DNA of 64,000 nucleotides from Candidatus Andersenbacteria bacterium RIFCSPHIGHO2_02_FULL_46_16 (GCA_001817065.1 MHHQ01000025.1:119777-183776), one strand, 5' to 3'; shown: positions 23,165 through 57,034, numbered from the stretch's first letter. Notes: generated by a model from the letters alone, not told the origin. Numbers and translations: made by a program.

Positions 23165-23330
23165 GTCACATTATGAAATGCCACAAATATAGTGACGGGC
23201 CCTGTCGGCGCTGCACCCCCACCCGACGGCTTCGGCCTGCCAGGCGGGCAGCCTGCAGGCGCTCGGTGGGGGTCCCCCGCGCCGCCACCCGTTTATTTAA
23301 GAGTGGCATTTCATAATGTGACATCTATAT
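23165..23330. repeat. Repeat family A copy 2, divergent and shorter, in the same orientation as copy 4
   Basis: gtcacattatgaaatgccac...ggcgctcggtgggggtcccccgcgccgccacccg...gtggcatttcataatgtgac. Confidence 0.65.
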
Positions 23331-29266: not shown

Positions 29267-29292
29267 ATGCCACTCTGACTTATTTTATATTT

Positions 29293-30618: not shown

Positions 30619-30619
30619 A

Positions 30620-32985: not shown

Positions 32986-33025
32986 ACTTTCATTATGTCT
33001 CGGAAAAACAATCCCGCCAAATGAC

Positions 33026-35167: not shown

Positions 35168-35173
35168 CCCTCG

Positions 35174-37849
35174 TTATCTCTTACGCCGGTAGTAAGTCAT
35201 AGTGTTTGATCCGTTCTCTATACCTTTAACGGCCTGCCAATTCCTGGCTAACCCCGCCTCAATTTCCTCATATTCCATCAAAAACGAGAATCCTGTTTGC
35301 TGCTCTAGTAATAACCATTCAGCATCGCGGTATGCTTGCAGCATTTCTTCTACCGTCGGCAAAAATGCATTCAGCCTGGCCGTATCTGTACGCGTAAATC
35401 CGTACGCATACCAACGCGGATGAGCGATATCGAGCGATACCTCATGTCCTGATAAAAATGGTATAGCCGCTGCACCAGTAAATATCGGCTCATCTATTGG
35501 TATATTCTGTTTTGCCCAATTTGCCGCCTCTTGTAGAGATGTCAGCTGGAATGTTCCCGTATGTTCATGCACGTAAGTTACATAATTCGCCACAAATAAT
35601 GACCATCCCAGTACCCCGATAAATCCCAGTGCTAATGTCCTCTGGCTTACTTTATTAACTATTGCACTATGGCTGCCTTGTCCTTGTGTTAATCTTCGCC
35701 ATCCTTCCGGTATTGCTAAACCTGCGATAATCACCAACGGCGGCAGAAACTCGCCGATATAATTAGCATGAAATTTTATCCAGTTATGATAGAAAAAGAC
35801 TAGTCCAACCACCCATACGAATGGCAATAACCAGCCCAGGAGATTCCAGCGTCCCTCTGATTTTAGCTGGTTACCAAGCCTATCGATCTTCCCCGCCGCC
35901 AATCCGTCCGCCAGGGTACCTCGATATTCTAATAATTCTTCCTTGCCCAACCTCTCCGTGTCATCTTTATTATTTCTTATTTTTTCATTTTTATTCTCTC
36001 TAACTCCAGACGGCCAGGCAGCCATAAATACAATTACTAATAACATCGCCCACCATAAGCGATACATGCCGAACACCATTATGCTGCTGCCTTCATACTC
36101 TTGAAAAAACGACCACGCCCAGCTATATACCATTACCGGTATAATCCAGAATAGTTTTTGCACGACGTTCTGTCGCCAGCCTAATCCACCCTGCCACCAT
36201 TCCATTTGACCAACTAGAGAACTTGCCAATCGCTCTCCCGCGAAACCCAAACCTAGCACAGCTAACATGATTAAAGGCAGGGACTCCCGGAAAAATGGCG
36301 TCATTCCTCGTATCGAATAGGCTCGCACTTGTTCCCGTTCGGATTCTTCTACGGCGGTAATACTATCCTCCACTGAATTAAATCCAGTTGCTTCCCATAA
36401 CCCAGCCTGACCATAAATTAACATTGCAACGCCTAAAAAAACTGCTAATACGATCACAAACCCCGCACCGACTAATAATAAACTCTGGATTTTTTGTCGT
36501 CCCGTCTTACTGCCAATCAATATTACCAATAATGGCACTAAACCTGTGGCTAGAATGCTTTTGCGCGATACCACCCCTAATCCCAACAATGCCCCCGCCG
36601 CTATTAACCACGCCTTGCCTGTTACCCTGTATTTTCTTTCCATACTCACCTGGCTCACGTACATATCCCTAGTTCCCAGCAGCAAAGCAGCTATTCCAGA
36701 CACGGCAAAGAAAATCGCTAGCGACTGTGTATGCACGTATATATTAAACACTACCGTTACACCCAGCAGCGCCCAGGTCGTAGCAACCGATAGTCCGACT
36801 TTTTTACTCCATAATTCTCGGCCAATAATATACATCGGCCACATCGTCATTGCGCCAATCACCACCGACGACAAGCGTCCCACAAAAATTGATGTGCCGC
36901 CCAACCATTCCCATAGCGCAATCCACAAAACTACTAACGGTGCTTTAACATACCCATCTCCGCCCGCCAATTTACCTTTAAGCAGCGTAGCCGCATCGTA
37001 TAAATAATTTCCCTCATCATTAGTCAGCGGCAGCTCCATCGCATATAAAATTCTAGCGACTAGTGCCAGCACAAACAATGTCACCAACCATCTCGCCACC
37101 TGCCAACGCGATTTAGCGCTTACCGCTTTACTCTTAATGCCTACGGTCACTGCCAAACAAATCCCCACCAGGAGCAGGGACTGCATAGCCACCCGTCCCC
37201 ACAAACCATAAGTCGCCCTGGCTTCATACCAGGTCTCTCTAAAATACTGCACTGCCCGCCAGCCTTCACTTCCCCATGCCACATACAATGGCACCTTATA
37301 TGCTGTGCCAAAAGCTAGGTCCATTTTCACTTTACCTCCTCTGGCCAGCTCTGTATCAGATATTTCCCCTGTCATTCCCCGCCAAATATAAGCGGAGCCG
37401 CGATGATAAGGATCCCTGTTATCAACGTCCACTGTCACCGCTTTTCCAGGCATCCCGTCTGGTAATTCTAGTAAAACAATAAATGTTATATCCTTGGCTT
37501 GCTCCACCGGATCAAAATTAAACTGGTACATTTGATTATCTCCAAGCTCTCTAGTACTTACCTCCACTTCACGTAAAATTTCTGACAGCTTATCCAACCG
37601 ACGCAAAGTAAACTTTACTTGTCCGGTATTCCCCCGCCCAGAATAAGTAGCGAACATTACCAAGACACTGGATAAATTATCACGCTCGCCCACAAAAGTT
37701 TGCCCCACCACCACTCCACCCAACATTTCCCCCGCATTCGCGGTATATCTCTCCGCCTGATATCCTTCTAATTCCGTAGTACCCAGCCATACCACCATCC
37801 CCAGCACCGCCAGCACACCGATCATCAGGCTGATGAAACCAATTTTCAT
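35174..37849 (-). CDS. Large GT-C-type membrane glycosyltransferase (ArnT-like) with an N-terminal extracytoplasmic domain
   Basis: The ORF is 891 aa. A NDEGNY motif precedes a multi-TM core. Confidence 0.5.
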   Translation of the reverse strand: MKIGFISLMIGVLAVLGMVVWLGTTELEGYQAERYTANAGEMLGGVVVGQTFVGERDNLSSVLVMFATYSGRGNTGQVKFTLRRLDKLSEILREVEVSTRELGDNQMYQFNFDPVEQAKDITFIVLLELPDGMPGKAVTVDVDNRDPYHRGSAYIWRGMTGEISDTELARGGKVKMDLAFGTAYKVPLYVAWGSEGWRAVQYFRETWYEARATYGLWGRVAMQSLLLVGICLAVTVGIKSKAVSAKSRWQVARWLVTLFVLALVARILYAMELPLTNDEGNYLYDAATLLKGKLAGGDGYVKAPLVVLWIALWEWLGGTSIFVGRLSSVVIGAMTMWPMYIIGRELWSKKVGLSVATTWALLGVTVVFNIYVHTQSLAIFFAVSGIAALLLGTRDMYVSQVSMERKYRVTGKAWLIAAGALLGLGVVSRKSILATGLVPLLVILIGSKTGRQKIQSLLLVGAGFVIVLAVFLGVAMLIYGQAGLWEATGFNSVEDSITAVEESEREQVRAYSIRGMTPFFRESLPLIMLAVLGLGFAGERLASSLVGQMEWWQGGLGWRQNVVQKLFWIIPVMVYSWAWSFFQEYEGSSIMVFGMYRLWWAMLLVIVFMAAWPSGVRENKNEKIRNNKDDTERLGKEELLEYRGTLADGLAAGKIDRLGNQLKSEGRWNLLGWLLPFVWVVGLVFFYHNWIKFHANYIGEFLPPLVIIAGLAIPEGWRRLTQGQGSHSAIVNKVSQRTLALGFIGVLGWSLFVANYVTYVHEHTGTFQLTSLQEAANWAKQNIPIDEPIFTGAAAIPFLSGHEVSLDIAHPRWYAYGFTRTDTARLNAFLPTVEEMLQAYRDAEWLLLEQQTGFSFLMEYEEIEAGLARNWQAVKGIENGSNTMTYYRRKR

Positions 37850-37893: not shown

Positions 37894-38880
37894 CTACCAA
37901 TATTCGTTCTTATTCTGCCGATAAAAAGCTACTGTTCGTCTTAACCCTTCTTCCAGAGATACCCCCGGTTCCCAATGAGTCACCTGTTTGATTTTAGCAG
38001 TATCGGCCACATAATCACCCGTTTCATTTTTTTCATAATCCTCCGGCCATGGCACAGACTCTTTTTCTCCCTGACCCACCGCCTCAATTACCGCATCTAC
38101 CATCTCCGTAAAAGTAATTCCCCGACCGCTGCCGATGTTATATGCCTCACCATCTTGGCCTGCTACTATTAGTCGCATCATCGCCTCAACAATATCATCA
38201 ATATAAATGTAATCTCTTAGCTGATTGCCATCACCGTAAATCTGAATCTTCTTTCCTTCCATCGCTTGCCGGATGAACCATCCGACAATCGCATATTTGC
38301 TGTGTTTCATTTGCTGTCTCGGTCCGTATGGATTAGGTATCCGCAGCGACATGCCATGCACCCCGAAGTTATGCGCGTAATAAGCGTAATATTTTTCCCC
38401 TAATAATTTGTGAATTCCATACAACGACAATGGTTGCGTCTCATGACTTTCTTTAACCGGCACTTCCTTAATTTTTCCGTATACCATGCGCGATGAAGAA
38501 AATAAGATTCGCGCTCCAGGGGCTTGCTCTTTGACTGCCTCCAGTACAATCAAATTTCCCCGCCCATTAAAGTCCAAATCAACAAAAGGTTTTTCCTTGG
38601 CATCTAAATAACCCACCTGACCTGCTAAATGAAAAATAAAGTCCTTTCCTCGCACTGTTTCAGTCACTGTCTCCTCGTCCGTAATATTGCCGTTCACTAA
38701 TTCAACCCGATCTTCGATCTCTTTGATATTAAATTTATTGCCTCCGTAGGGTGTCAGTAATGCATCTAATATACTCACCCGCGCTCCTACCTCCACCAGC
38801 CGATGTGTTAATGTACTGCCTATAAACCCCAAGCCGCCCGTGACAAGAACTTTCTTACCACCAAAATCTCTTTTAAACAT
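37894..38880 (-). CDS. NAD-dependent epimerase/dehydratase (GalE/UXS-like SDR)
   Basis: VLVTGGLGFIGSTL, the SSSRMVYG...YGIHK catalytic region, and NPYGPRQ. Confidence 0.7.
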   Translation of the reverse strand: MFKRDFGGKKVLVTGGLGFIGSTLTHRLVEVGARVSILDALLTPYGGNKFNIKEIEDRVELVNGNITDEETVTETVRGKDFIFHLAGQVGYLDAKEKPFVDLDFNGRGNLIVLEAVKEQAPGARILFSSSRMVYGKIKEVPVKESHETQPLSLYGIHKLLGEKYYAYYAHNFGVHGMSLRIPNPYGPRQQMKHSKYAIVGWFIRQAMEGKKIQIYGDGNQLRDYIYIDDIVEAMMRLIVAGQDGEAYNIGSGRGITFTEMVDAVIEAVGQGEKESVPWPEDYEKNETGDYVADTAKIKQVTHWEPGVSLEEGLRRTVAFYRQNKNEYW

Positions 38881-38935: not shown

Positions 38936-40087
38936 TCATTGCTTTAAGCCCTTGTCATATTTCAAATACAGCTCATTATACTGTCGCATAATCTCTGCCC
39001 AATTGTATTGCTTGGCCATTTCCCTGCTCCTCTGGCCCATCTCGCTGCGCAAATTCTCATCATCGATCAATTGAACTAGGTCATTCGCTAATTTACTGCT
39101 ATCGTCCCCCCTGATTAAATAACCGTTCCAGCCATCACTTACCAACTCATTATTTCCTCCCACATCACTGGCCACTACCGGTAAACCACAACCCATCGCC
39201 TCCAGAATGACTGATGGCATCCCTTCTGACAACGAGGTCAACACAAATATATCTGCTTGCTGATAGGATTTTTCCAGTTCGTCATATGGCACAGTTCCGA
39301 CATACTTTATTTGCTCAGCTACCCCTAATGCCTGAGCGACATCATCCAACTTTTTACGATGCTCACCGCTGCCCACCACCTCAACCTCGAACGCCTCATG
39401 TACTTTCTTTTGCACTTCCGGTAAAGATCGGATCACCCTTTCAAAACCTTTACGCGGGATTAAACGGCCTATGAATAATACTTTTACCTTTTTGTTTCTA
39501 GGCCGCTCTACGGGCTTAAACCGATCCCATTCAACCCCATTTGGGATAACCACGAACTCGCTCGTGGGATCCACTATCTTACCTAGCCTTGCTAACTCTT
39601 CCGAACAAACCGTTCTAAACTTTGCCCTTTGCCAAATTGCTCGGAGCAGCGGCGTTATCAAGGGATAAATCCTTTTATACCGCGACAAATTAGCGCCGGG
39701 TAAATCAGACCCGCCGAAATAGACGGCGTACGGTATGCCTCGCACCATGTTCAGCATCCAGGCCACCCAGCCAGCCGGTACAGCAAAATATGCTTGGACA
39801 AAATCAACCCGGTGACGACCAGTAAAAATTAAACTGTATATCAGTGCAGACAAACCAAACGTCACCAGCTCCCATTGCGCACAAAAATCCTTATAACGCC
39901 TGATGGCCGGTATGCGAATTACGAGCGCCCCTTCCACCTGCTCCCGTTTCGGTAAATCGCGATACTGCGAAGTAATTAATGTCACCTCGTGGCCCGCCTG
40001 CACCAAATATCTTATCGCGTATTTAGTGACTGTAGACCCACCCCCGCCGATCGGCGGAAATTCATTGTTTATCAGCAGCAGTTTCAT
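38936..40087 (-). CDS. Glycosyltransferase family 4
   Basis: E(x7)E region SEGMPSVILEAMGCGLPVVASDVGG. Confidence 0.75.
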   Translation of the reverse strand: MKLLLINNEFPPIGGGGSTVTKYAIRYLVQAGHEVTLITSQYRDLPKREQVEGALVIRIPAIRRYKDFCAQWELVTFGLSALIYSLIFTGRHRVDFVQAYFAVPAGWVAWMLNMVRGIPYAVYFGGSDLPGANLSRYKRIYPLITPLLRAIWQRAKFRTVCSEELARLGKIVDPTSEFVVIPNGVEWDRFKPVERPRNKKVKVLFIGRLIPRKGFERVIRSLPEVQKKVHEAFEVEVVGSGEHRKKLDDVAQALGVAEQIKYVGTVPYDELEKSYQQADIFVLTSLSEGMPSVILEAMGCGLPVVASDVGGNNELVSDGWNGYLIRGDDSSKLANDLVQLIDDENLRSEMGQRSREMAKQYNWAEIMRQYNELYLKYDKGLKQ

Positions 40088-40173: not shown

Positions 40174-41136
40174 CTATATTTTATCCCACCCTATTGTCTC
40201 CTTTATACTGTAAGCTTTCTTCTGCGCATAATACGTTTTGGCCACCACGTCAGCCAGCACACCAGTCAATAAAAACTGAAAACCTAGTAGCACGAGCAAC
40301 ACCGCTAACAACGGCAAGGAGCTATTTGCAAAACCGGTAATCTTCAGTAACCAGATGATTAATATTGAACTGCCCAATATAAAACCAGCGAAGATAAAGC
40401 CTATCCCGATTGCCCCGAAAAAATGCATCGGCCGCGCTGCGTACTGCACCCAGAATTTAACCACGATTAAATCAAGAAATCCTTTCAACTTCTTCTTCAC
40501 CGAGTAATTTGTTCGACCATGTTCCCTCGGATAATGGTTAACCTCTAATTCTCCAACCCTAAATCCTTTCCAAGACAGTAACGCTGTTATATAACGATGC
40601 ATCTCACCATACAACTCTAGGTCTATCAGCACCTCCCGCCGATATATTTTCAAGCTGCATCCATGATCATGGATTTTTTCGGCCGTCATCCATCGGTGCA
40701 CCACGTTGCCAATTTTGCTCAGCAACACCATACCGCCATTATCCTGACGATGCCGGCGCCAGCCTGATACCACATCTAAATCCTTGCCAAGCAGATGCTT
40801 CATCATCGCTGGGATATCCTTAGGATCATTCTGTAAATCAGCATCCATCACAATGACAAATTCGCCCTGGACACGATCAAATCCAGCCGACCACGCTGCT
40901 GTCTGTCCAAAGTTTCGTCTGAATTCAATCATCTTTACACACTGGTCCTTCTGCACGAGCTCCCTCATTATTTTATTAGTATCGTCATCGCTGCCGTCAT
41001 CAATAAAGATGATCTCCCACCCGCCATCCATCTGATCCATGACTTCTTTAGTCGCTTGATACAACGACCGCAAATTATCCTGTTCGTTATGGGCAGGAAT
41101 CACTAATGAATATTTCATATTATCTGCAGTATACAC
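40174..41136 (-). CDS. GT2 polyprenyl-phosphate glycosyltransferase (DPM1/ArnC/GtrB-like)
   Basis: SLVIPAHNE...IFIDDGSDD...VVMDADLQ DXD motifs and two C-terminal TM helices. Confidence 0.75.
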   Translation of the reverse strand: MYTADNMKYSLVIPAHNEQDNLRSLYQATKEVMDQMDGGWEIIFIDDGSDDDTNKIMRELVQKDQCVKMIEFRRNFGQTAAWSAGFDRVQGEFVIVMDADLQNDPKDIPAMMKHLLGKDLDVVSGWRRHRQDNGGMVLLSKIGNVVHRWMTAEKIHDHGCSLKIYRREVLIDLELYGEMHRYITALLSWKGFRVGELEVNHYPREHGRTNYSVKKKLKGFLDLIVVKFWVQYAARPMHFFGAIGIGFIFAGFILGSSILIIWLLKITGFANSSLPLLAVLLVLLGFQFLLTGVLADVVAKTYYAQKKAYSIKETIGWDKI

Positions 41137-41388
41137 TACTAAAAATAGATTAAGGACACACTGTAAACCTTATTAATAGCCATGTCAAGCCATAGTCTTG
41201 TGCAGGGCAATCGCATTGAATTGAGGGCTCAAATAGGGCTGCGAAAGCAAAGGGGTGATTTTCGTCCTGCTCAGAAAATAAGCAAACTTGCTCCGATTGG
41301 TCCCTAAGCCATTAATTGCAGTGCGATTGCCCTGTAGTCTTGTGAGATCGTACGTTCATACTTATTTACAATTTTACGTAATATAAAA

Positions 41389-41587
41389 ACATCACATCAT
41401 GAAATGTCACTGCAGAATAAGCGGGTGGCGGCGCGGGGGTCCCCCACCGAGCGCCAGCAGCCCTGAGCTTGTCGAAGGGCGATGCCGTCGGGTGGGGGAG
41501 CAGCGCCGACAGGCCTGCCAGCCGCAGCCATAGCGAAGGCTGGACCCGTTTTTTGTCTGGTGACTTTTCATGATGTGACACCTATAG
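41389..41587. repeat. Repeat family A copy 3
   Basis: Its roughly 160-nt core is the exact reverse complement of copy 4. Confidence 0.85.
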
Positions 41588-41686
41588 TAATAGTAATTAT
41601 TGCTTAAAAAAAACTCCTCGTAGAATTAAATCTATTAAGGAGCACAATGCGCCCTGAAAAAAATTCGTGACCAACAACATCTTGTA

Positions 41687-41950
41687 CTATTTGGGTTCCT
41701 TTCCATCCCGGTAAATGGACATTTTCCCTAATGCTGCAAAAAGCTCGCCTTTCATTTCTGGCCCAAATCCCTTTGTCATGGTTATTACGTGTATCTTGGT
41801 ATTCAGTAAATCGCCGATCGTATAAATATGCAGTCGTTCCAATAAACCTAAGATTCTCCCCGCTAGGTATTTACTCTTAAACTGTAAATCAGTCACCGAC
41901 ATTTGCAGTAATTCCGTTAACTCCTCCTTAGTATGTCCGACTATAGCCAT
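41687..41950 (-). CDS. Stand-alone RNA polymerase alpha C-terminal-domain-like (HhH) protein
   Basis: LQMSVTDLQFKSKYLAGRILGLLERLHIYTIGDLL resembles the RpoA alpha-CTD segment LELSVRSANCLK..GI.TIGDLV. Confidence 0.45.
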   Translation of the reverse strand: MAIVGHTKEELTELLQMSVTDLQFKSKYLAGRILGLLERLHIYTIGDLLNTKIHVITMTKGFGPEMKGELFAALGKMSIYRDGKEPK

Positions 41951-42057
41951 GCTGTTTCTCCACTAATTTTGTTCGGCTGATTTAAAAAAGAACGCACTCC
42001 ACCAAACTAATACCTTACCATTAATTACTTAATATTTCTGTCACCAATCGACATCCC

Positions 42058-42930
42058 TTACAGACTAATCTTTCTTAAATAATCGCCATAGCCGCTTTTC
42101 ATTAAGGGCTTGGCCAGTTTTTTTAATTGTCTTTTACCGATAAATCCCATCCGGAAAGCTACTTCTTCAATACAGCCAACCTTCAACCCTTGTCGCTCCT
42201 CTACGGTCTGCACAAACATACCTGCCTGTAACAGGGAATGGTGCGTTCCGGAATCAAGCCAGGCTGTCCCGCGACTCAGCACAGACACTTTCAGCTTCCC
42301 GCGTTTTAAGTATTCCTTATTTACATCAGTAATCTCCAATTCGCCTCGTTGTGAAGGTTTTATCCTGCTGGCAATATTTAACACCTCATTATCGTAAAAA
42401 TATAACCCGGGCACCGCATATGAAGATTTAGGTTTCTTTGGCTTTTCCTCAATTGAGATCACATTACCTTCCTGATCAAATTCTGTAACACCATAGCGTT
42501 CCGGATCGGACACGTGATAGGCAAATACTATCCCTCCGCCGTTATCTTCAACCTGTTGCCGCGCGTTCCGCAAAATAATCGGGATATCATTGCCATAAAA
42601 AATATTATCGCCCAATATTAATGCCGCTGGCCCATCTCCAATAAATCTGCGCCCGATAACAAACGCCTGCGCCAGCCCCTCTGGTTTCGGCTGTTTGGCG
42701 TATTTGATTCTCATGCCTAACTGCGATCCGTCTCCAAATAACTTTTTATAGAACGGTAAATCGTGTGGCGTGGAAATTATTAAAACCTCCCTGATCCCAC
42801 CAAACATCAAGGTCGATAGCGGATAGTAAACCATTGGTTTATCATGCACTGGCAGCAATTGTTTGCTGACACTTATTGTTAATGGGTGCAACCTGGTCCC
42901 CGACCCACCTGCTAATATAATTCCTTTCAT
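42058..42930 (-). CDS. rmlA: Glucose-1-phosphate thymidylyltransferase
   Basis: [18 protein letters not shown]...KQLLPV...GLAQAF over its full length. Confidence 0.85.
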
Positions 42931-43253
42931 ACGCTACTAATACACTATAACCATAAACCAGTCAAGCCTAAGACCGGTAACTGCTCACTGGTCGAGAAAG
43001 ACTATTGGCTAAGATAAGACGTTATAATTTTTCACTTTTAAGAAAACCTTCTTTTTCTGGCTCTAAATATGGCTTAACCTAGTAATCCACCCTTAACCTG
43101 TGAACAGTTACTAAGACCGCTTAAGTCAGTATTCTTAAAATATCAACCTAAACAATGCTAGCCCACACAACTGACTAAATAAAACCGTAGTAAACCAGTA
43201 AGTCTGTTAGATTAAGAGCCTTACCTGTCAAAACTCTGCGCCATTGCTCCCTT

Positions 43254-44228
43254 TTAACTATAATGGATATGTTTCATTAAGTAGTTTTTGACGTAATCAC
43301 TGATGGCTTCCTCTATAGTCATAAAGGGCTTTTGGAACCCAACACCTCGCAATTTAGTAATTTCTGCCTGCGTAAAATCCTGGTATTGGTCTTTTAACTC
43401 TTCCGGCAAATCAATGTATTTGATCTCAACCTTTCTCCCGGCAGCTTTAAACATCGCTCTCGCCACATCATTCCATGTCCTTGCCACACCGGTGCCCACA
43501 TTGAACACCCCGCAGGCTTGTTTATTATCCAAAAAATGCACGGTTGCATCCACCGCATCCTTCACATAAATAAAGTCTCTCTTTTGCTCTCCGTCACCAA
43601 ACTTTTCATTATTTGATTTATACAACTCAATCACTCCGTCTTTTTGCATTTGCTCGAACTTCTTGGCAATTACGCTGCGCATAGCACCTTTATGATATTC
43701 ATTGGGACCAAACACATTGAAATACCTGATTCCTACTACTTGGTCTAGATAACCTCCGTCTCGCGCCCAAATATCTACCAGCAACTTTGACCGGCCATAG
43801 TCATTAAGCGGCTTTAACCGATCAAACAAATCGTGATCATCACTATATCCCTCACTTCCATCACCATATGTTGCACCGCTTGATATATAAACACATCGCA
43901 CCGCTCGATCAACACACCACCGGACGACTTCCTGCGTAAAATCAATATTAATGTCCTCAAACAACGCCCAGTCTCGTTCGATTGTTGACGTAATGGCTGC
44001 CAGATGAAAAACCGCTTCAACTTTTTCTTGATCAAACAAGCCTTCCTTAAGACCCTTTCTAAAACCCGCACCGTCTATTAACTGCTCATACTTAAGCGCT
44101 GATAAATTATGTTCCTTTTCGTCATGGTCCAATTTATCGACCACCAGCAAATCTGATCTTCCTCTTTTATTCAAAGTGCCCACTAATGCACTGCCAATAA
44201 AACCTGCTCCACCCGTGATAATAATCAT
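43254..44228 (-). CDS. hldD: ADP-L-glycero-D-manno-heptose 6-epimerase
   Basis: MIIITGGAGFIGSALV...RYFNVFGPNEYHKGAMRSV...YQDFTQAEITKLRGVGFQKPF aligns along the full length with HldD/RfaD. Confidence 0.8.
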   Translation of the reverse strand: MIIITGGAGFIGSALVGTLNKRGRSDLLVVDKLDHDEKEHNLSALKYEQLIDGAGFRKGLKEGLFDQEKVEAVFHLAAITSTIERDWALFEDINIDFTQEVVRWCVDRAVRCVYISSGATYGDGSEGYSDDHDLFDRLKPLNDYGRSKLLVDIWARDGGYLDQVVGIRYFNVFGPNEYHKGAMRSVIAKKFEQMQKDGVIELYKSNNEKFGDGEQKRDFIYVKDAVDATVHFLDNKQACGVFNVGTGVARTWNDVARAMFKAAGRKVEIKYIDLPEELKDQYQDFTQAEITKLRGVGFQKPFMTIEEAISDYVKNYLMKHIHYS

Positions 44229-44350
44229 AAATAAATATTTTGCCAATCAACACCCCAAAGCCATATTAACATATCCCTCCCTCCCGTAAATGGAGCCCCA
44301 TCCCGCCCCCTGGGTGGGCTAGCGAAATCCCGCGTAGCAGCCAACTATAG

Positions 44351-44548
44351 ACATCACATCATGAAAAGTCACCAGACAAAAAACGGGTCCAGCCTTCGCT
44401 ATGGCTGCGGCTGGCAGGCCTGTCGGCGCTGCTCCCCCACCCGACGGCATCGCCCTTCGACAAGCTCAGGGCTGCTGGCGCTCGGTGGGGGACCCCCGCG
44501 CCGCCACCCGCTTATTCTGCAGTGACATTTCATGATGTGACACCTATA
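44351..44548. repeat. Repeat family A copy 4, inverted relative to copy 3
   Basis: 100% identical to the reverse complement of the core of copy 3. Confidence 0.85.
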
Positions 44549-44977
44549 TCTGCCCCACTTGCTCCACAACCCTCCTTACTCACGAAGCTTTGAATGGCAG
44601 CGCGGGGTTATCCCATTCCTTGTCGGCCAAAGCCTTGGCGACGGTTGATTCATCCACCCCCCCGCCACCGGCGGGGTGGTTTTCTGCGCCATGGGATAAA
44701 AAAAGCTGGCTTTCCAGCTTACAGACCAAGCAGTAGTTTTATTAATGAAGACAGTCCTCCAAACACTGCTGCAACTACTGCTACGACAAATATAAATCGC
44801 ACCCCTTGATCACTGACACCATCCGTCATTACTACTTTAGTTTCCTGCTTACTTTTCCTTCTGTTTACACTCCTTCGCGATAATTTTGACCAGTCCGGCT
44901 TCCGCTGTCGTTCCCCATCTTGACGTGACAATTTTCATCTCCTTTCAAAAGAACCAAGCTGTCGCTACTAGTTATTT

Positions 44978-45496
44978 CTACCTGTCCCTGCGAATTTTAT
45001 CAATCAGGCCTGATGTCGAAAATTTATTTCTTTTCTGGATCTCATATCCCACGGTACCAATTTCCTGCATCACCGACCATTCTATCCATTGCTCCGCCTT
45101 ACCATATTCCCCGCCATTAGCATGTACGTGCGGTTGCACTGTTCGCAGCAATAATTTGGGCACCTCAATCTCATCTGCGTCGATTATTATTACATAGTCT
45201 ACACAACTAAGTGCCGCCAGCATTGCCGCCCGCGCCTCCTCAGTAAAGAAAGGGCGCTCCTTTCCCTTATACCCTCGGATCGATCGATCCGAATTAATAC
45301 CCACAAATAACACGTCTCCTTGCTTCTTCGCTGCTTCCAACTGATCCAAATGACCCACGTGCAATATATCAAACGCACCATTTACCGTAACCAGCTTTCT
45401 GCCATCTTTTTTAAATTTAGCCGCGTTTTTCTTAGCTTCCGCTAACGAAATAATTTTGTTCATTCGCCAATTTGTCTGGTCTAATGTTTCATCCAT
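44978..45496 (-). CDS. hldC: D-glycero-beta-D-manno-heptose-1-phosphate adenylyltransferase (HldE domain II type, monofunctional)
   Basis: Cytidylyltransferase fold VTVNGAFDILHVGHLDQLEAAKKQGD...VGINSD. Confidence 0.75.
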   Translation of the reverse strand: MDETLDQTNWRMNKIISLAEAKKNAAKFKKDGRKLVTVNGAFDILHVGHLDQLEAAKKQGDVLFVGINSDRSIRGYKGKERPFFTEEARAAMLAALSCVDYVIIIDADEIEVPKLLLRTVQPHVHANGGEYGKAEQWIEWSVMQEIGTVGYEIQKRNKFSTSGLIDKIRRDR

Positions 45497-45604
45497 AAAT
45501 GTCTATTAATCACATTAGACATGTTGCGAAAGTCTCAAAACACCCTCTGGGGACAGTATATAATGCTCCTAGAGCCCTAAATAAATCATTTCGCAACATG
45601 TCTA

Positions 45605-46186
45605 TTATTGTCTTGCCTTAAGTATCCACTTTGCTGCCTCATATAACGATTCGGCAATCATGTCTGGTTGCTTGGTTCTATTTACAATATCTGTATTAGC
45701 CCAGTATTTACTTTGAAGCAACCCTGTTTTTGTTCCGACGCTTTGTCCCATTTCCATGTCCAACAACTTATCACCGATCGTCCAACTCGTCGTAAAATCA
45801 ATCCCGCCCATTCTACGTTCCGCATCAATCATCATTCCTGTTCTTGGTTTACGGCAAGCGCATCTGCTATCTCGGGCGTGCGGACAATACATAATCAAAT
45901 CTATTATTACCCTTTCCTTCTTCAACTCTTGTTCCATGTGTTGATGCAAAACTTGCATGTCATGCAAAGTATAATAACCCTGTCCGATGCCGGATTGGTT
46001 CGTCACCACAATTAATTTGTACCCTTCCTCCTGAAACATCCGCAAAGCCTGTGGCACTTTCTCGTCAGCCCACTTCCAATCCTCCACACGATAAACATAC
46101 CCTAAATCAAAATTAATCGTTCCATCACGATCTAAAAAAATCGCTTTATTTTTATCTGTCTCCATATTGATTAGGGGTGGACGCAA
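45605..46186 (-). CDS. gmhB: D-glycero-D-manno-heptose-1,7-bisphosphate 7-phosphatase
   Basis: HAD motif FLDRDGTIN and the Zn-binding insert YCPHARDSRCACRKP. Confidence 0.8.
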   Translation of the reverse strand: MRPPLINMETDKNKAIFLDRDGTINFDLGYVYRVEDWKWADEKVPQALRMFQEEGYKLIVVTNQSGIGQGYYTLHDMQVLHQHMEQELKKERVIIDLIMYCPHARDSRCACRKPRTGMMIDAERRMGGIDFTTSWTIGDKLLDMEMGQSVGTKTGLLQSKYWANTDIVNRTKQPDMIAESLYEAAKWILKARQ

Positions 46187-46206
46187 AACAGCTTCAAGCG
46201 TGCTTG

Positions 46207-47259
46207 CTAAATAGCTTCGTCAACCATTTTTATTTCTGTCTGTTCGTCCTTTACGCCATTTTTAGTCAGCATCTCATATATCTCATCTGTGCTAATACCC
46301 ACACTCCCAACTTTGCTGACTACCACCGCACCTCCTGCGTTAGACAATTCGGCCGCTTCATTTTCACACGCGCCAGATAGCATGCTTAATAATAAAACTG
46401 CCGCTGCCGTATCACCCGCCCCCGACTCATCTGCTACCTCAATCACATTGCTTTGCGGAATATAATGACCATGCTCGCCGCCACAATAAACATATATCCC
46501 CTCTTTGCCCAATGTTAGGAACACGTTAGCGCACATTTTCACGTAGACCATTTTTGCTAATTCTGCCGGCGGGACTTGCTGCTCATGATAGTTCAAGCCG
46601 AGAAATTCATGCGCTTCTCTAACGTTGGGTGAAATAAAAGTTGCCCCTGTAAAATAACTCGCTCGTGATGGTTTCACATCAGCACCAACTAAGATGTCTC
46701 TTTGGCCTGCTTCATCTAACACCACTTCTGCAATCTTTTTTGTGACTAATCCTTTCGCATAATCAGACACAATAACTGCATCGACACCTTCCGCCATGAC
46801 TTTCCTGATTTCAGCTATCACTTTTTTCTCAATCTCGCTATTGATATCTTTAACCTCTTCAAAGTCTACTCTGAGCATATGCTGATTACCCACCAGATAT
46901 CTTTCCTTTCTGATCGACGGCCTTTCCTTGTCTCTAATTAGAATTGCCCGATAGCCTTCCTGATTAGCCGTTTCCTCAATCAGGGTGGCTGTTTCATCAT
47001 CTCCCACTACGCTAACTAAAATTGTCTCTGCCCCTAACCTTGCTAAGTTTTTTGCTGTATTGCCAGCTCCGCCTGTCTCTTCCCGCTCCCTTGTTGCTCT
47101 TAAAATTGGCACCGGTGCCTCTGGATTAATTCGTTCTACTACGCCATGGATATAGTGATCCAGCACAATGTCCCCCACCACCAACACCTTATGCTGGTCA
47201 AATTTTTTAATTAATTCTTTAGCCCTAGATAGTTCCATAAATGAATTTGGAAAATGCAT
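46207..47259 (-). CDS. hldA: D-glycero-beta-D-manno-heptose-7-phosphate kinase (HldE domain I type, PfkB family)
   Basis: KVLVVGDIVLDHYIHG..RINPEAPVPIL and a C-terminal GAGD motif. Confidence 0.75.
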   Translation of the reverse strand: MHFPNSFMELSRAKELIKKFDQHKVLVVGDIVLDHYIHGVVERINPEAPVPILRATREREETGGAGNTAKNLARLGAETILVSVVGDDETATLIEETANQEGYRAILIRDKERPSIRKERYLVGNQHMLRVDFEEVKDINSEIEKKVIAEIRKVMAEGVDAVIVSDYAKGLVTKKIAEVVLDEAGQRDILVGADVKPSRASYFTGATFISPNVREAHEFLGLNYHEQQVPPAELAKMVYVKMCANVFLTLGKEGIYVYCGGEHGHYIPQSNVIEVADESGAGDTAAAVLLLSMLSGACENEAAELSNAGGAVVVSKVGSVGISTDEIYEMLTKNGVKDEQTEIKMVDEAI

Positions 47260-47288
47260 ATTAAATCATTTATAAATAAATGTCAATA

Positions 47289-47861
47289 TTACTTACTTTC
47301 TTCTTCAAACTCCTCACATAAGAGGTGGATGGCATGCAAATGCAGCTCTTGTATCCGGGCCCCGATCGCACTCGGTGATATTATCGCTAAATCAGCCATG
47401 TCCTTAAAACTGCCCTGTGTGCCAGTTAACGCTATGATTGTCATCCCTCGCTCTCTAGCTTTTTCTGCCGCTCTCAATATATTCTTCGATGTTCCAGATG
47501 TGGTCAAGCCAATAAAAACATCCCCTTCTTGCCCCAGTGCTTCAATCTGCCGCGAAAAAATCTGATCATAGCCATAGTCGTTGCCGATGCATGTTATAAC
47601 TGCGCTATCCGCCGTCAATGCAATGACAGGGTAAGCCGTTCTATCCTTCTTGTACCGGCCAACCATCTCGTCTGATAAATGCTGAGCCTCTGCGGCTGAC
47701 CCGCCATTCCCAGCCACTAACACCTTACGCCCTTTCGCAAACACTTCCTTTAAGTGCCTAACAACGTTCTCGATCTGCTCGTGATATTCATCTAAGTCAT
47801 TCAAGACTTCTCGCAATTCATCAGAATGCTTAATAAATTTATTATGAGTCTTCTTAGTCAT
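47289..47861 (-). CDS. gmhA: Phosphoheptose isomerase (SIS domain)
   Basis: KVLVAGNGGSAAEAQHLSDEMVGRY...ALTADSAV...GLTTSGTSKNIL. Confidence 0.8.
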   Translation of the reverse strand: MTKKTHNKFIKHSDELREVLNDLDEYHEQIENVVRHLKEVFAKGRKVLVAGNGGSAAEAQHLSDEMVGRYKKDRTAYPVIALTADSAVITCIGNDYGYDQIFSRQIEALGQEGDVFIGLTTSGTSKNILRAAEKARERGMTIIALTGTQGSFKDMADLAIISPSAIGARIQELHLHAIHLLCEEFEEESK

Positions 47862-47901
47862 GTCTTTTTACCTTATCTAATGATAAACATACTTCCGATC
47901 A

Positions 47902-48789
47902 CTACACTATCGAGCCACTATCGGCCTGCCTGTTACCCATCATACCCGCACCTAAATAGTCTGCCAGCGCATTTTGCCATGATCGTAACTGCGGACCTTT
48001 CTCGTTAAGTAACACGCTCCATGTCGGTCGCTTAGCCGGTCGCGAGGATTCTGTTGATGGCACTGGTATTACTGATACACCCCACTTTAAACTATTAAAT
48101 ATTTCTTCTGCCAGCGAAGACCAATTAGTGACTCCCTCATTGACCAAGTGATAAATACCTAAAGCCAACTTGTCCTCCACAATTTTCCTGGTTGCCTCTG
48201 CCAGATCGACCGTATATGTCGGACTCCCCCACTGATCATTGACCACCCGAATTTCTCGCTTGCCTTCTTCCGCCCTTATGATCTTTTCGCCCAGCTTTAT
48301 CATAGTATCCACAAAATTTCTTCCGCCCACCCCATATAACCAGGCTGTCCTGATTAGGTAAAAATTTGGACTAATCTCTTTCAGTAATCGCTCACCAGCC
48401 AACTTTGTCTCGCCATAACAATTAACTGCCGGTCCCGGTAAATCATCTTCCCGATATCCTTTTTGGTTCGTTCCAGCAAATACATAATCAGTACTGTAAT
48501 GGATTAATATAGCTCCCAAGTCTTTTACGGCACGCGCCACGTTTCCAACGCCGTCTGCATTCACTGCCAACGCAACTGCACGATTGTTCTCCGCCCCATC
48601 AACGTTTGTATAAGCCGCCGCATTTATAACCAAGTTAGGCTTCAAGCCAAATATTGTCTTGCGCACCATATCCTCATCGATAATATCAATCTCTTCACTG
48701 TCCAGTGCCGTCACCTCACCCAACCTAATAAATTCTTTTTGTAGCGCACCACCTAGCATCCCTTTTGCTCCCAATATAACTATCCTCAT
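47902..48789 (-). CDS. rmlD: dTDP-4-dehydrorhamnose reductase
   Basis: MRIVILGAKGMLG...NAAAYTNVD...STDYVF...WGSPTY over its full length. Confidence 0.8.
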   Translation of the reverse strand: MRIVILGAKGMLGGALQKEFIRLGEVTALDSEEIDIIDEDMVRKTIFGLKPNLVINAAAYTNVDGAENNRAVALAVNADGVGNVARAVKDLGAILIHYSTDYVFAGTNQKGYREDDLPGPAVNCYGETKLAGERLLKEISPNFYLIRTAWLYGVGGRNFVDTMIKLGEKIIRAEEGKREIRVVNDQWGSPTYTVDLAEATRKIVEDKLALGIYHLVNEGVTNWSSLAEEIFNSLKWGVSVIPVPSTESSRPAKRPTWSVLLNEKGPQLRSWQNALADYLGAGMMGNRQADSGSIV

Positions 48790-49000
48790 AAATTCTTGTT
48801 TCTATTTAATGCCAGCCTCAGCGTCAATTAACCATGAAACAATTTTAGCATACCAAAGCCTGCTCTGCGCAAACCATAACTATTCCCAACCGGCCAACTC
48901 TGCAAAACTCCAGACATTCCAAAATTACGCCTTTCTATCGCGTTTAAACAGCTTTATCTCCAAGCGCTCTTAGCCTTTTACTGCTAGCGAACTTAGAATA

Positions 49001-49870
49001 TTATTTCTCCAGCAACGCGTTCCAATCCTCAACAAACTTCTTCAAGCCGGCCTCCGTTAATTCATGCTGAATGTTATAGTCCTGCCACTCCTTCCCCATC
49101 TCCACCTGCTCATAAGGAATGCTTTGTCCTTTAAATTCATAAACAAATTCCTTTCCTGGCACTTCAAAACCATTTTGTGCCCACAGTTCAAACCGCTCTT
49201 TATTTATCGTGACCACATCAGCGCCCACCCTGATTATCTCGTAAATATTCTCCAAGGTGCGAAAACTCGCCGCCAGCACCTTAACGTGTCCATCAGTATC
49301 TTCCATCATCTTCACAATATTTCCCACCAGCTCAGCTCCATTCTGTCCCCTGTCCTCAAAACGCCCGATAAACGGTGATATATAAACAGGTTCTGTTGCA
49401 CCGAGGGTTGCTTCATAAACCGCTGCTGCTTGCTGCTGTGAAAAACACAGCGTCATATTTAATCGCACTCGATCTTTAAGCTGCTCTGCCGCTTTCAATC
49501 CCTCTGCAATTATCGGTAATTTTATTCTGGCTGTAGGTATCCATTGGCTCATAATTTCCGCCTGCTTGACCATCGCACCAGCGGAGGTGTTTTTATCAGC
49601 AAACACCTCTACTGAAATATCTCCTCCCGGTATTATCTTCTCCAACTCTCGCACTGTTTGCTGATAGACCGCCAATAAATCTTGCTCGAAGTATTTCTCT
49701 CCGGTAGCGATTTTTTTCTTCACTGCCGGATTCATTGCAAAATACGAGGGGTTGGTGGTAGCCCCATCCAATCCCGCATAATCCTCCTTCTGCAATAAAT
49801 CCTGGATTGCTTGCGCCTCGTTGGGATCACCCGTATCAACTAATAATTTTGCTTTGATTAATCTTTTCAT
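49001..49870 (-). CDS. Transaldolase-family protein (Tal/FSA-like)
   Basis: LLVDTGDP...GATTNPSY and a Schiff-base lysine region IKLP. The gene is adjacent to the transketolase genes. Confidence 0.7.
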   Translation of the reverse strand: MKRLIKAKLLVDTGDPNEAQAIQDLLQKEDYAGLDGATTNPSYFAMNPAVKKKIATGEKYFEQDLLAVYQQTVRELEKIIPGGDISVEVFADKNTSAGAMVKQAEIMSQWIPTARIKLPIIAEGLKAAEQLKDRVRLNMTLCFSQQQAAAVYEATLGATEPVYISPFIGRFEDRGQNGAELVGNIVKMMEDTDGHVKVLAASFRTLENIYEIIRVGADVVTINKERFELWAQNGFEVPGKEFVYEFKGQSIPYEQVEMGKEWQDYNIQHELTEAGLKKFVEDWNALLEK

Positions 49871-49887
49871 AATAACTAATACAAGTA

Positions 49888-50850
49888 TTAATTGTTAACG
49901 ATTTGCTGGACTGCCCTCACTATCCCCGCCGCGTCAATACCAAGTCTGGCTGTCAGTTGGGGGTATGTACCCGATTCGCCAAATTGTGTTACTCCGACTC
50001 GCCTCAGTAATGTCGGCTGTTCCTCACCCAGCACTTCCGCCACTGCCGACCCTAAACCGCCATTAATATTATGGTCCTCAACAGTTACCACTCTTTTTGT
50101 CTTCTGCGCCGATTTTATAATCGTTTCTTTATCTAATGGCTTAATGGTATGCACTCCGATTACTTCAGCATTAATGCCGGCTATTTTCAATTGCTCGCGG
50201 GCCGTTAGTGCCATCACCGTACTAGGCCCGGCTGCAACAATAGTAACATCATTGCCTGTCCGATGGATATTCGCCTGCCCTATTTTAAAAACGTCATCCT
50301 TACCAGTAAAGACAGCCGTGGCTTCACGGTATAAACGCAAGTATACCGGACCATCGAGCGTAGCGGCTGCCCTAAACGCCCACTCGGTCTGATTAGCATC
50401 AACCGGATATATAATCGTCATGTTTGGCAACGCCCGCATATAGGCGATGTCTTCTAAAGCATGCGCTGATCCACCATCCAATGCATTAGATACGCCGCCA
50501 TGCGACCCGACCATTACTGCATGCAAATTATTCTGGCAAATTTGCATCCGGATATGATCAAACGCCCTGGTCATAAAGACGGCAAAGGTTCCCGCGACCG
50601 GCACAAATCCTCCCAGTGCTAAACCGGCCGCTATTCCCACCATATTAGCTTCTGCAACACCGATATCAAAAAATCTTTCGGGCATTTCCTCTTGGATTTT
50701 TAGCATCCGCAGACTTTCACCCAAATCAGCCGTTAAAGCCACCACGCTTTTATTTTCCTTCATCACCTCGTAAAGCGTTTCCCCAAACGCTTGTCTAGTA
50801 GCAATAAGCGCATGCTTTATTGGTTGTTTTAGTGGTTTTAAATTTTGCAT
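49888..50850 (-). CDS. Transketolase C-terminal subunit (pyrimidine-binding domain plus C-terminal domain)
   Basis: Split-transketolase architecture with RQAFGE...GVAEANMVGIAAGLA. Confidence 0.8.
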   Translation of the reverse strand: MQNLKPLKQPIKHALIATRQAFGETLYEVMKENKSVVALTADLGESLRMLKIQEEMPERFFDIGVAEANMVGIAAGLALGGFVPVAGTFAVFMTRAFDHIRMQICQNNLHAVMVGSHGGVSNALDGGSAHALEDIAYMRALPNMTIIYPVDANQTEWAFRAAATLDGPVYLRLYREATAVFTGKDDVFKIGQANIHRTGNDVTIVAAGPSTVMALTAREQLKIAGINAEVIGVHTIKPLDKETIIKSAQKTKRVVTVEDHNINGGLGSAVAEVLGEEQPTLLRRVGVTQFGESGTYPQLTARLGIDAAGIVRAVQQIVNN

Positions 50851-50883
50851 TGTTATTTTAAGTGTTTAGTTTTAGCTTTTTCA

Positions 50884-51702
50884 TTAGCTGCCCAACTCTT
50901 CCATCGCCATCTCGTATTGTTCTAGTGTTATTGCTCCGGCGTGCCAATGTTCGCTGTTTTCCATGAACGACACTCCTTTGCCTCGAACGGTGTGTGCAAT
51001 AATCACCGCCGGTTTCTTTATCCGCTGCGCCTTTACTAACGCTTTCCATATTGCCTTCAAATTATGTCCATCAATCTCCTGTACCTGCCACCCAAAAGCC
51101 CGGTACTTGGCGGCTAACGGATCCAATGTTGGCATAACTTTTTTAGTAAAACCATCAATTTGCATCCCGTTCTTATCCACCAGGGCAACCAGATTATCTA
51201 GTTTCTCTTTCGGCGCATACATGACCGCCTCCCATGTTGACCCCTCCTCTTGCTCGCCATCACTCATCATCACATACACCGATCTCTTATCGTTCTTTCT
51301 TAATTTACTTGCCAAAGCTAAACCAAGCCCCACCGACAACCCTTGGCCCAAACTGCCTGACGATATTTCCACCCCAGGTAAAGACCCCCGATGTGGATGC
51401 CCCTGTGCACCAGCGCCTAGTTGCCTCAGCTTCTTCAGCTCTGCTTTCGGAAAATAACCCCGCTCTGCTAAAACAGCGTACAAAGCTGGACAAGCGTGGC
51501 CATTGCTTAATATAAAATAATCTCTGTTTTCCATATCTGATTTTACCGGATCGTGCCTCAGTAAGCCGCTAAAAAATAATGTGACTAACAAATCCATGCC
51601 AGACAAAGAGCTACCCGGATGCCCAGACTGCGCTGCATACAACATTTCAATTACCTGCTTCCGCAGCCCTCGAGCCTTTTCTTCTAAATGTTTAACGTCC
51701 AT
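50884..51702 (-). CDS. Transketolase N-terminal subunit (TPP-binding)
   Basis: SGHPGSSLS...GSLGQGLS..GLALA...MSDGEQEEG. Confidence 0.8.
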   Translation of the reverse strand: MDVKHLEEKARGLRKQVIEMLYAAQSGHPGSSLSGMDLLVTLFFSGLLRHDPVKSDMENRDYFILSNGHACPALYAVLAERGYFPKAELKKLRQLGAGAQGHPHRGSLPGVEISSGSLGQGLSVGLGLALASKLRKNDKRSVYVMMSDGEQEEGSTWEAVMYAPKEKLDNLVALVDKNGMQIDGFTKKVMPTLDPLAAKYRAFGWQVQEIDGHNLKAIWKALVKAQRIKKPAVIIAHTVRGKGVSFMENSEHWHAGAITLEQYEMAMEELGS

Positions 51703-51807
51703 ATGTAAACATTATACTTTATCAACCATCCTACTATGAACATTTGCTTTTTCAAGGTCACACCACCACGCCTGGCCCTCTCCCCCCAAATATCCCCAAT
51801 CAATTAA

Positions 51808-52263
51808 TCATCTTGGCTTTACCGTCCAGTCAAAACTAATATTTGCATCATCATGCGCCAATCTAAACTCATCCTGCGGATCGTAAACCCGTGTCGTGGC
51901 ATACACTAGCCAAGCCGGCTCGTTGCCCAATACTTTATAACCATGCACCACTCCGTGCGGTATAAATAAAGTAACCGGCTTATGTTCTCCCATGGTTATT
52001 ACTTGCGTTATACCTTTAGTTGTTGCCGCCGCTCGCTGATCAAACAACACCGCCTGAATCATCCCTTTCATACAATACCATAAATCGTCCTGCTTTTCGT
52101 GGTAGTGGAAAGCCTTTATAACTCCCGGATAACTCATGGTCGTCGATAACTGCGAAACACTCTCTAAAACACTTTCCTTAGTTCGAAAGATTTCTCGAAA
52201 AAAGCCTCTGTCATCAGGCATAGTCTTTATTCCTTCCACCACTACACCTTCAATTTCACCCAT
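51808..52263 (-). CDS. rmlC: dTDP-4-dehydrorhamnose 3,5-epimerase-like protein (RmlC family)
   Basis: PDDRGFFREIF...GVIKAFHYH...MKGMIQAVLFD. The start is moved to MGEIEG. Confidence 0.6.
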   Translation of the reverse strand: MGEIEGVVVEGIKTMPDDRGFFREIFRTKESVLESVSQLSTTMSYPGVIKAFHYHEKQDDLWYCMKGMIQAVLFDQRAAATTKGITQVITMGEHKPVTLFIPHGVVHGYKVLGNEPAWLVYATTRVYDPQDEFRLAHDDANISFDWTVKPR

Positions 52264-52337
52264 TTTAGGAGCCTCCTTCCGTCTCTTTTCCTTGCCCTCT
52301 CTAGTTGTGCTATTTGCCATAATATATTCCTGCTTAC

Positions 52338-56766: not shown

Positions 56767-57034
56767 CTTAGGCACCGTAAATAAATAACTTGACCAGATC
56801 TCGTTCAATCTGCGTCGAGATACGGCTTTTCCAATTGCCTGCCGGCCGTAGCTTTCTTGACCACCGTAGCTTTAGCGAAGGTGGTAGCGACAGCTGGAGC
56901 GAAATACGAAGCGCAGTACTACGGTAAGTGTTTCGCGATTGCCTGCCGGCCGTAGCCTTGGCGAAGGCTGGAGAAAAAGTCGTAGATTGCATAGTGGGCG
57001 AGAGATGGTTAAGTTATTTATTTACGGTGACTTA
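56767..57034. mobile_element. MITE-like element B copy 2, with an internal partial duplication
   Basis: Terminal inverted repeat ends cttaggcaccgtaaataaataacttgaccagatctcg and cgagagatggttaagttatttatttacggtgacttaa. It abuts murJ, whose start is 8 nt away, and its terminal taa is the stop codon of the 57032..59923 ORF. Confidence 0.75.

Follow-up and report, generated by a model that had tools for sequence, protein, structure and literature searches.

Gene content of the locus

The locus considered here lies in a 64,000-nucleotide stretch of DNA (hereafter the window) from Candidatus Andersenbacteria bacterium RIFCSPHIGHO2_02_FULL_46_16 (GCA_001817065.1, MHHQ01000025.1:119777-183776), an uncultured groundwater member of a monoderm-type lineage of the candidate phyla radiation (CPR)/Patescibacteria. 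It brings together genes for ADP-heptose synthesis, a split transketolase (Tkt), a transaldolase (Tal) and enzymes of dTDP-rhamnose synthesis. ORF calling and profile matching placed 11 open reading frames (ORFs) on the minus strand of region 42058-52320, in the order RmlC-like cupin, tktN, tktC, tal, rmlD, gmhA, hldA, gmhB, hldC, hldD and rmlA. A first-pass annotation of this DNA had described the same genes in the same order on one strand, and all of the ORFs were found at the positions that it gave; it had also proposed that they form a metabolic channel from the pentose phosphate pathway (PPP) into ADP-L,D-heptose. The start of the span that it assigned, 42058-52263, is correct, while position 52263 is a shorter, 151-aa alternative start of the cupin gene, whose longest ORF begins at 52320. 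Both the exact sequence of the hldA kinase and its neighbors recur unchanged in four metagenome-assembled genomes (MAGs), GCA_001817145.1, GCA_001817175.1, GCA_001817135.1 and GCA_003501005.1.

Family membership was judged by Pfam and NCBIfam profiles (bit score against equivalog cutoff) and by sequence matches to the PDB. The expected family was the best match for every gene, so that the identities first assigned stand except in one respect, namely that the “rmlC” is a divergent cupin without two of the catalytic residues. Judged on sequence, the enzymes of the array all appear to be conventional orthologues.

Five of them make up a conventional ADP-heptose set, for which conversion of sedoheptulose-7-phosphate (S7P) to ADP-heptose is predicted. 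GmhA, the S7P isomerase (47289-47861, 190 aa), scored 199 bits against TIGR00441 (cutoff 209), and its best PDB matches were 1tk9 (157 bits) and 2x3y (155 bits). The alignment with the PDB template covers QHLSDEMVGRY and ARIQELHLHAIH, and we take the His/Glu and Gln/His within these segments, from established knowledge of GmhA, to be catalytic or Zn residues. The PfkB-family heptose-7-phosphate kinase, HldA (46207-47259), has 6815 homologues and scored 278 bits against TIGR02198 (rfaE_dom_I; cutoff 345). Ribokinase/PfkB models reached about 65 bits, around one-quarter of the rfaE_dom_I score, membership being at the family level, and the single PDB match at or below 1e-10 was the Burkholderia HldA 4e84. 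GmhB, the HAD-IIIA heptose 1,7-bisphosphate 7-phosphatase (45605-46186), scored 168 bits against NF006506 (cutoff 178), cleared the cutoffs of TIGR01656 and TIGR01662 (HAD-IIIA and histidinol-phosphatase-domain subfamilies) and matched 3l8e/2gmw in the PDB; its start is probably at 46165, for a protein of 186 aa, as in the gene call of locus L001. HldC, the heptose-1-phosphate adenylyltransferase (44978-45496, 172 aa), scored 134 bits against TIGR02199 (rfaE_dom_II; cutoff 181.5) versus only 40 bits for the TagD model, and it aligns over its full length with the Burkholderia pseudomallei HldC structure 5x9q. Finally, HldD, the ADP-glyceromanno-heptose 6-epimerase (43254-44246), scored 350 bits against TIGR02197, above the cutoff of 275, and carries a YGRSK motif; following the L001 gene call, its start is probably at 44228, for a protein of 324 aa. 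As had been noticed at first, the HldE function is split between two genes, hldA and hldC, with gmhB in between. Among relatives, the heptose enzymes are repeatedly fused or split (P0051, P0080, P0074; L015; L025:10626-11681), the observed fusions being GmhA-HldA (~520 aa), HldA-HldC (HldE-like, 495 aa) and GmhB-HldC.

Considering that GmhA, HldA, GmhB and HldC score slightly to moderately under their NCBIfam equivalog cutoffs, some of these genes might conceivably be mis-assigned paralogues (a SIS isomerase, a PfkB sugar kinase or a TagD-like cytidylyltransferase), with no ADP-heptose being made, a concern that the first-pass annotation had raised for gmhA, hldA and hldC. Scores under the cutoffs are, however, expected of divergent CPR proteins, and HldD clears its own cutoff. 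Mis-assignment is unlikely because the heptose enzymes are by far the best models and the best solved structures for each protein. Moreover, the five genes are kept together in the same order in dozens of genomes and are also found as fusions, and we regard this explanation as very improbable.

The transketolase is encoded as two subunits. The N-terminal, thiamine diphosphate-binding subunit, TktN (50884-51702, 272 aa), scored 191 bits against PF00456, while TktC (49888-50850, 320 aa) carries the pyrimidine-binding and C domains (PF02779 and PF02780). Together the two cover complementary halves of NF004559, with 300 bits across profile positions 14-280 of 627 for TktN and 312 bits across positions 316-625 of 627 for TktC, the cutoff of 488 applying to the fused protein. 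DXS and E1 models fit both halves far less well than genuine transketolase models do. The transaldolase (TAL_FSA; 49001-49870, 289 aa) belongs to the short TalC/Fsa-like type and carries insertions; it scored 143 bits against PF00923 and 92 bits against the PDB entry 1wx0. Its K117 (in IKLP), D12, E88 and F167 (in SPFIGR) are invariant in alignment A2. From what is established for TalB and FSA, on which our reading of D12 and E88 also draws, we take K117 to be the Schiff-base lysine and F167 to be the transaldolase-type residue in place of the Tyr of FSA. Tkt and Tal produce S7P, which is the substrate of GmhA, and the biochemical logic of supply put forward in the first pass is therefore sound.

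The remaining members of the array belong to dTDP-sugar metabolism. RmlA, the glucose-1-phosphate thymidylyltransferase (42058-42930, 290 aa), scored 466 bits against TIGR01207 (cutoff 361), and RmlD, the dTDP-4-dehydrorhamnose reductase (47902-48789, 295 aa), scored 277 bits against TIGR01214 (cutoff 224). The RmlC-like cupin (51808-52320, 170 aa) scored 91 bits against PF00908 (dTDP_sugar_isom) and 77 bits against TIGR01221, below the cutoff of 156, and its PDB matches to RmlC reached about 50 bits at most. When aligned with the canonical RmlC of relatives (alignment A3), it was seen to retain the catalytic His (in FHYH) and Tyr, to have Asp at the equivalent of Lys73 and to end short of the Asp170 region; the catalytic numbering (His63, Lys73, Tyr133 and Asp170) is that of the Salmonella RmlC. 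A canonical RmlC of 183 aa occupies this position in most relatives. The short FHYH cupins form a distinct subfamily (51808-52320 and 3952-4380 in the window, and members in L007, L034 and L088) that lacks both the Lys73 equivalent and the C-terminal Asp, shows weak similarity to the cupin at the C terminus of CapF/WbjC-type enzymes (NF047837, PF14667) and takes the slot of canonical RmlC in a few species.

As the first-pass annotation had noted, RmlB is missing from the window. Its [ST]DE[VI][YF]G motif occurs in none of the six frames of the window, of loci L001-L042 or of L145, and RmlB was not found in the 8.2 kb upstream of the window (L145), which carries further sugar-modification genes. 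Two short-chain dehydrogenases/reductases (SDRs), at 37894-38880 and 6542-7528, were tried as RmlB, since their NCBIfam matches include dTDP-glucose dehydratase, yet the motifs that they carry are SSSRMVYG and SSSSVYG, a UDP-glucose 4-epimerase is the PDB entry that they match best and TDEVYG is found nowhere in the window; both were rejected. A GT9 heptosyltransferase (PF01075) would be expected near the pathway or elsewhere in the genome if the heptose were used in the inner core of lipopolysaccharide (LPS). No Pfam match to this family was obtained among the submitted ORFs of the window, which include all of the large ones, and none is present in the existing annotations of L001, L143, L146 and L147 or among the annotated genes of the 8.2-kb upstream stretch in L145.

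Modules and seams

The first-pass annotation had placed the array on one strand. All of the genes do share a strand, but this is unremarkable and uninformative because every ORF of at least 100 aa within 25113-63986 is on the minus strand. Spacing, moreover, is uneven. Gaps of 33 bp (tktN-tktC) and 17 bp (tktC-tal) hold the PPP triad together, and gaps of 20-108 bp run from rmlD through gmhA, hldA and gmhB to hldC. Wider gaps separate tal from rmlD (211 bp), hldC from hldD (731 bp) and hldD from rmlA (323 bp). The array thus consists of modules joined by variable seams. Among relatives, the tal-rmlD gap ranges from 14 to 1150 bp and is the most variable junction of the block, whereas the gaps within modules are small or negative. 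A scan for promoter-like sites gave 18 versus 23 in shuffled sequence and is hence uninformative on operon structure.

Conservation of the arrangement in other genomes

A scan with the kinase profile, limited to one genome per species, yielded 80 loci, onto which the window proteins were mapped. Around 35 of these are Andersenbacteria-like and keep the order murJ-lepA-rmlC-[slot]-rmlD-gmhA-hldA-gmhB-hldC-hldD-rmlA-GT2-GT4-SDR. At the 27 species-level loci where the slot upstream of rmlD could be assessed, it holds tktN-tktC-tal in 6, tal only in 2 and neither in 19. In other words, conserved adjacency of tkt/tal with gmhA is not the rule (8 of the 27 have tal); the 19 lack tkt/tal within 10 kb of the heptose genes, and no remnants were detected in the empty slots at E<=0.01. 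In contrast, lepA and murJ are at least equally conserved as neighbors of the heptose block.

The loci that carry tkt/tal fall on at least three deep branches of a neighbor-joining tree (HldA, GmhA and RmlD), interleaved with empty ones, and this scatter suggests an old arrangement with repeated loss. Additional contigs show other variants. A full set occupies the slot in L143, tktC abuts rmlD without tal in L147, and five unrelated genes part tkt-tal-rmlD from gmhA in L146. A PPP gene lies 0-64 bp from rmlD in seven loci (L009, L011, L033, L037, L143, L146 and L147), and the adjacency first noticed in the window therefore recurs in several Andersenbacteria lineages, and in some of them tal or tktC is only 0-24 bp from rmlD. 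The insert of L146 (12717-16751) encodes a ThiF-like protein, an autoinducer-synthase-like acyltransferase, a histidine kinase and two response regulators.

Beyond the CPR, 44 loci showed no linkage of tkt/tal, the one partial exception being L050 (Aquifex), where a transketolase gene is located ~4 kb upstream of hldA. In two contigs from MAGs of DPANN archaea, L059 (Woesearchaeota) and L080 (Aenigmatarchaeota), hldA occurs with gmhA, and L080 adds hldC and an HldD-like gene.

A reverse scan starting from the transaldolase recovered 55 metagenome loci. Among these, 15 contigs contain the tktN-tktC-tal triad and lack gmh and rml genes across the fetched flanks, and only Tal proteins of at least 45% identity (the Andersenbacteria level) are encoded beside rmlD/gmhA. 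Related TktC proteins (60-63% identity) were also found in a gpsA-FGGY kinase-tktN-tktC context.

Significance of the tkt/tal adjacency

We favor, with some rather than great confidence, the view that the adjacency is a matter of conservative gene order and that any co-expression is loose, over a dedicated channel of supply. The tktN-tktC-tal triad would then be the ordinary non-oxidative PPP module of the lineage, self-contained and placed in a variable slot upstream of rmlD. This housekeeping role is assigned because other CPR-like contigs carry the triad by itself, and we infer that the genes are the sole housekeeping copies. They would not be paralogues set aside as a pair for this purpose, nor would the heptose genes depend on having them close by. 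In some relatives, where tal or tktC nearly touches rmlD, the triad is plausibly co-transcribed with rmlD-gmhA. The adjacency itself would be an old and repeatedly lost feature of gene order in the class. Gene order here appears to be conservative regardless of function, because lepA and murJ are equally conserved neighbors.

Several observations sit uneasily with this view. The spacing of 0-64 bp between a PPP gene and rmlD in seven loci is more suggestive of selection for co-expression than of purely neutral placement. All of the Andersenbacteria-level Tal proteins that were recovered are encoded in the slot and none elsewhere, and relatives without a Tal in the slot might no longer possess one at all, an odd situation for a housekeeping gene. 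Finally, no GT9 that could consume the ADP-heptose was found among the submitted ORFs of the 64 kb.

Some of these same observations would be explained if, as first proposed, one polycistronic unit coupled S7P production to ADP-heptose synthesis, the enzymes being either co-regulated or physically channeled. The shared strand and the short gaps within modules are in keeping with this proposal, as are the close approach of tal or tktC to rmlD-gmhA in the seven loci, the presence of the arrangement on several deep branches and the confinement of the Andersenbacteria-level Tal to the slot. There is also a precedent in the lincosamide clusters, which encode a transaldolase with GmhA/GmhB-type enzymes (PMC12945683). 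Coupling of this kind, however, seems rather unlikely to us. The 19 of 27 relatives that hold the heptose genes do so without tkt/tal nearby, and no junction varies more than that of tal with rmlD, which measures 211 bp in the window. Furthermore, it is rmlD and not gmhA that directly adjoins tal, and in L146 five genes intervene before gmhA is reached. Since lepA and murJ are conserved to the same degree, order is kept whatever the function. The metabolic channel and the single operon are thus not supported: the triad is a separate, tight module attached through a variable seam, it is not in the slot of most relatives and it occurs alone in other CPR-like contigs.

Predicted product and its context

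We interpret the array as belonging to a glycan locus for the cell envelope that is conserved in Candidatus Andersenbacteria. RmlA and RmlD would contribute to a dTDP-6-deoxyhexose, probably rhamnose; RmlB would have to lie elsewhere, and the non-canonical cupin may carry out the 3,5-epimerase step. Both sugar nucleotides are presumably used by the adjacent GT2/GT4 enzymes together with the many GT-C, YfhO and MurJ-like proteins of the window to build a non-LPS surface glycopolymer. A more specific proposal, which we advance tentatively and consider doubtful, is that Andersenbacteria, for which the window gives no sign of LPS machinery, make a surface glycopolymer of ADP-L,D-heptose-derived and 6-deoxyhexose units by means of a non-GT9 transferase (one of the conserved GT2/GT4 enzymes encoded beside rmlA, or one of GT-C/YfhO type), and that ancestrally in the class the PPP genes belonged to the same operon, S7P supply thereby rising with glycan synthesis.

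If coupling were true, a surface-glycan operon would have taken in genes of central metabolism in an organism whose metabolism is minimal, and heptose-containing, non-LPS envelope polymers would be expected in CPR bacteria along with a new heptosyltransferase. This would be of consequence, as CPR cell surfaces mediate the episymbiotic lifestyle. The main practical value of the present work is a well-annotated envelope-glycan locus for the Andersenbacteria class, in which the tkt/tal-heptose neighborhood is lineage-specific and often lost. The ADP-heptose pathway is not in itself new to the group, since its biosynthesis was stated earlier to be encoded in Paceibacteria in an account of CPR ecogenomics (PMC9166423). 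Our literature search on ADP-heptose in the candidate phyla radiation, and on gmhA with transketolase and transaldolase, found no account of the linkage.

Neighboring genes and a repeat element

By Pfam and NCBIfam, the whole window is an envelope-glycan region. YfhO and a DUF4012 protein, both reported at first reading, were found, and the window also encodes a MurJ-like flippase, several GT4 enzymes and GT-C/PMT-like proteins, some of which have TPR domains. Downstream of the array on the minus strand are a GT2 (40174-41136), a GT4 (38936-40087) and an epimerase-like SDR (37894-38880, with SSSRMVYG and YGIHK motifs), all three of them steady downstream partners of the cluster in relatives; the GT2 and the GT4 are candidate transferases. 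Two conserved small ORFs without family matches are annotated as genes in some source assemblies, namely a 70-aa ORF after hldC (44719-44931, minus strand) with a hydrophobic C-terminal segment and an 87-aa ORF after rmlA (41687-41950, minus strand).

Further along, a module at 28523-37849 resembles that for decaprenyl-phospho-arabinose synthesis, and two large GT-C/PMT_2 membrane proteins come after it. It includes a HAD-UbiA fusion (30620-32065; 527 bits against NF006088 and 128-148 bits against phosphoribosyltransferase models), a DprE1-like FAD oxidase (29293-30618; 340 bits versus a cutoff of 500) and a DprE2-like SDR (28523-29266). The substrate of such a module, phosphoribosyl pyrophosphate, likewise comes from the PPP. 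A second sugar-nucleotide module (3952-7528) comprises two epimerase-type SDRs, a cupin and a glucose-1-phosphate cytidylyltransferase-like protein (5405-6190; 220 bits against TIGR02623). Upstream of the window, L145:1-9872 encodes a DegT aminotransferase, methyltransferases and a Wzx flippase.

The 731-bp gap between hldC and hldD contains a palindromic, GC-rich repeat element of ~205 nt (44344-44548) that resembles a miniature inverted-repeat transposable element or a repetitive extragenic palindromic element. A second copy, 98% identical and in inverted orientation, lies at 41392-41588, and the two thereby flank hldD, rmlA and the 87-aa ORF. The predicted RNA fold of the element has a free energy of -114 kcal/mol (z = -7.7), and it had no Rfam match. 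The element has 43-nt terminal inverted repeats, and further copies occur at 409-651, 23201-23329 (partial) and 56941-56972 (a fragment); it is confined to loci of the same species, with partial copies in some assemblies. Downstream of hldC, a terminator-like hairpin followed by a T-run (44703-44720, minus strand) was identified by consensus match only. No RNA was found by Rfam (gathering threshold for the whole window, and E<=1 for 41100-45000) or by a tRNA scan.

Comparison with known systems

The closest point of reference is the ADP-heptose pathway of E. coli and that of Burkholderia and Neisseria with split HldA/HldC, in which the same five enzyme families take part. Burkholderia divides kinase and adenylyltransferase in the same manner, and its structures 4e84 and 5x9q are those matched by the window proteins. 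Unlike these classical systems, the host here is a CPR bacterium, the window is without sign of LPS genes and has no GT9 within 64 kb, and the heptose genes are grouped with rml, GT2/GT4 and PPP genes instead of waa core genes.

The closest HldA proteins outside the CPR, at 48-53% identity (other Gram-negatives being at 31-39%), are encoded in MAG contigs of Opitutaceae/Verrucomicrobiota (L023, L025, L029 and L038). These contigs share the order gmhA-hldA-gmhB-hldC-hldD in a polysaccharide context of Wzx flippase and GT4 (seen in L025), not one of LPS core; they have no tkt/tal or rml genes alongside, and L025 has a GmhB-HldC fusion. The likeness points to a heptose module of polysaccharide type rather than of LPS-core type, and it could stem from horizontal transfer or misbinning. 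Compared with the dTDP-L-rhamnose RmlABCD pathway, the window has RmlA and RmlD above their equivalog cutoffs, lacks RmlB and carries in the RmlC position a cupin without equivalents of Lys73 and Asp170.

Another system that merits comparison is the thio-octose pathway of lincosamide (lmb/ccb) clusters, where a transaldolase is likewise encoded with a GmhA/GmhB-style route of sugar-phosphate activation: LmbR (transaldolase), LmbN (isomerase), LmbP (kinase), LmbK (phosphatase) and LmbO (nucleotidyltransferase) (PMC12945683). There, in a secondary-metabolite cluster of Streptomyces, the LmbR transaldolase builds octulose-8-phosphate and the product is GDP-octose. By analogy, the Tal and Tkt of the window could conceivably act outside the standard PPP pool, on an octulose-8-phosphate-like ketose phosphate or in adding a two-carbon branch to a dTDP-4-keto sugar, and the placement of tkt/tal between a non-canonical RmlC-like cupin and RmlD might be seen in this light. 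We consider such a role highly improbable. Both Tal and Tkt have their orthologues in the stand-alone triad that is widespread in the CPR, the canonical transaldolase residues are all retained, including the Tal-type Phe, and the Tkt halves fit transketolase models far better than the DXS/E1 alternatives. The kinase is of the PfkB HldA type and the transferase of the HldC type, as in ADP-heptose synthesis, and HldD clears its equivalog cutoff; the two former types are not those known from the GDP-octose route. From the enzyme types, which are those of ADP-heptose synthesis, and from Tal being a housekeeping orthologue, an octose-type route in the window appears improbable.

The nearest counterpart of the PPP genes themselves is the triad that stands by itself in other CPR-like contigs. 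The three genes, their order, their tight spacing and the long TalC-type transaldolase subfamily are all shared, and the fetched flanks of those contigs contain neither heptose nor rhamnose genes; placement of this triad upstream of rmlD-gmhA is found in Andersenbacteria alone.

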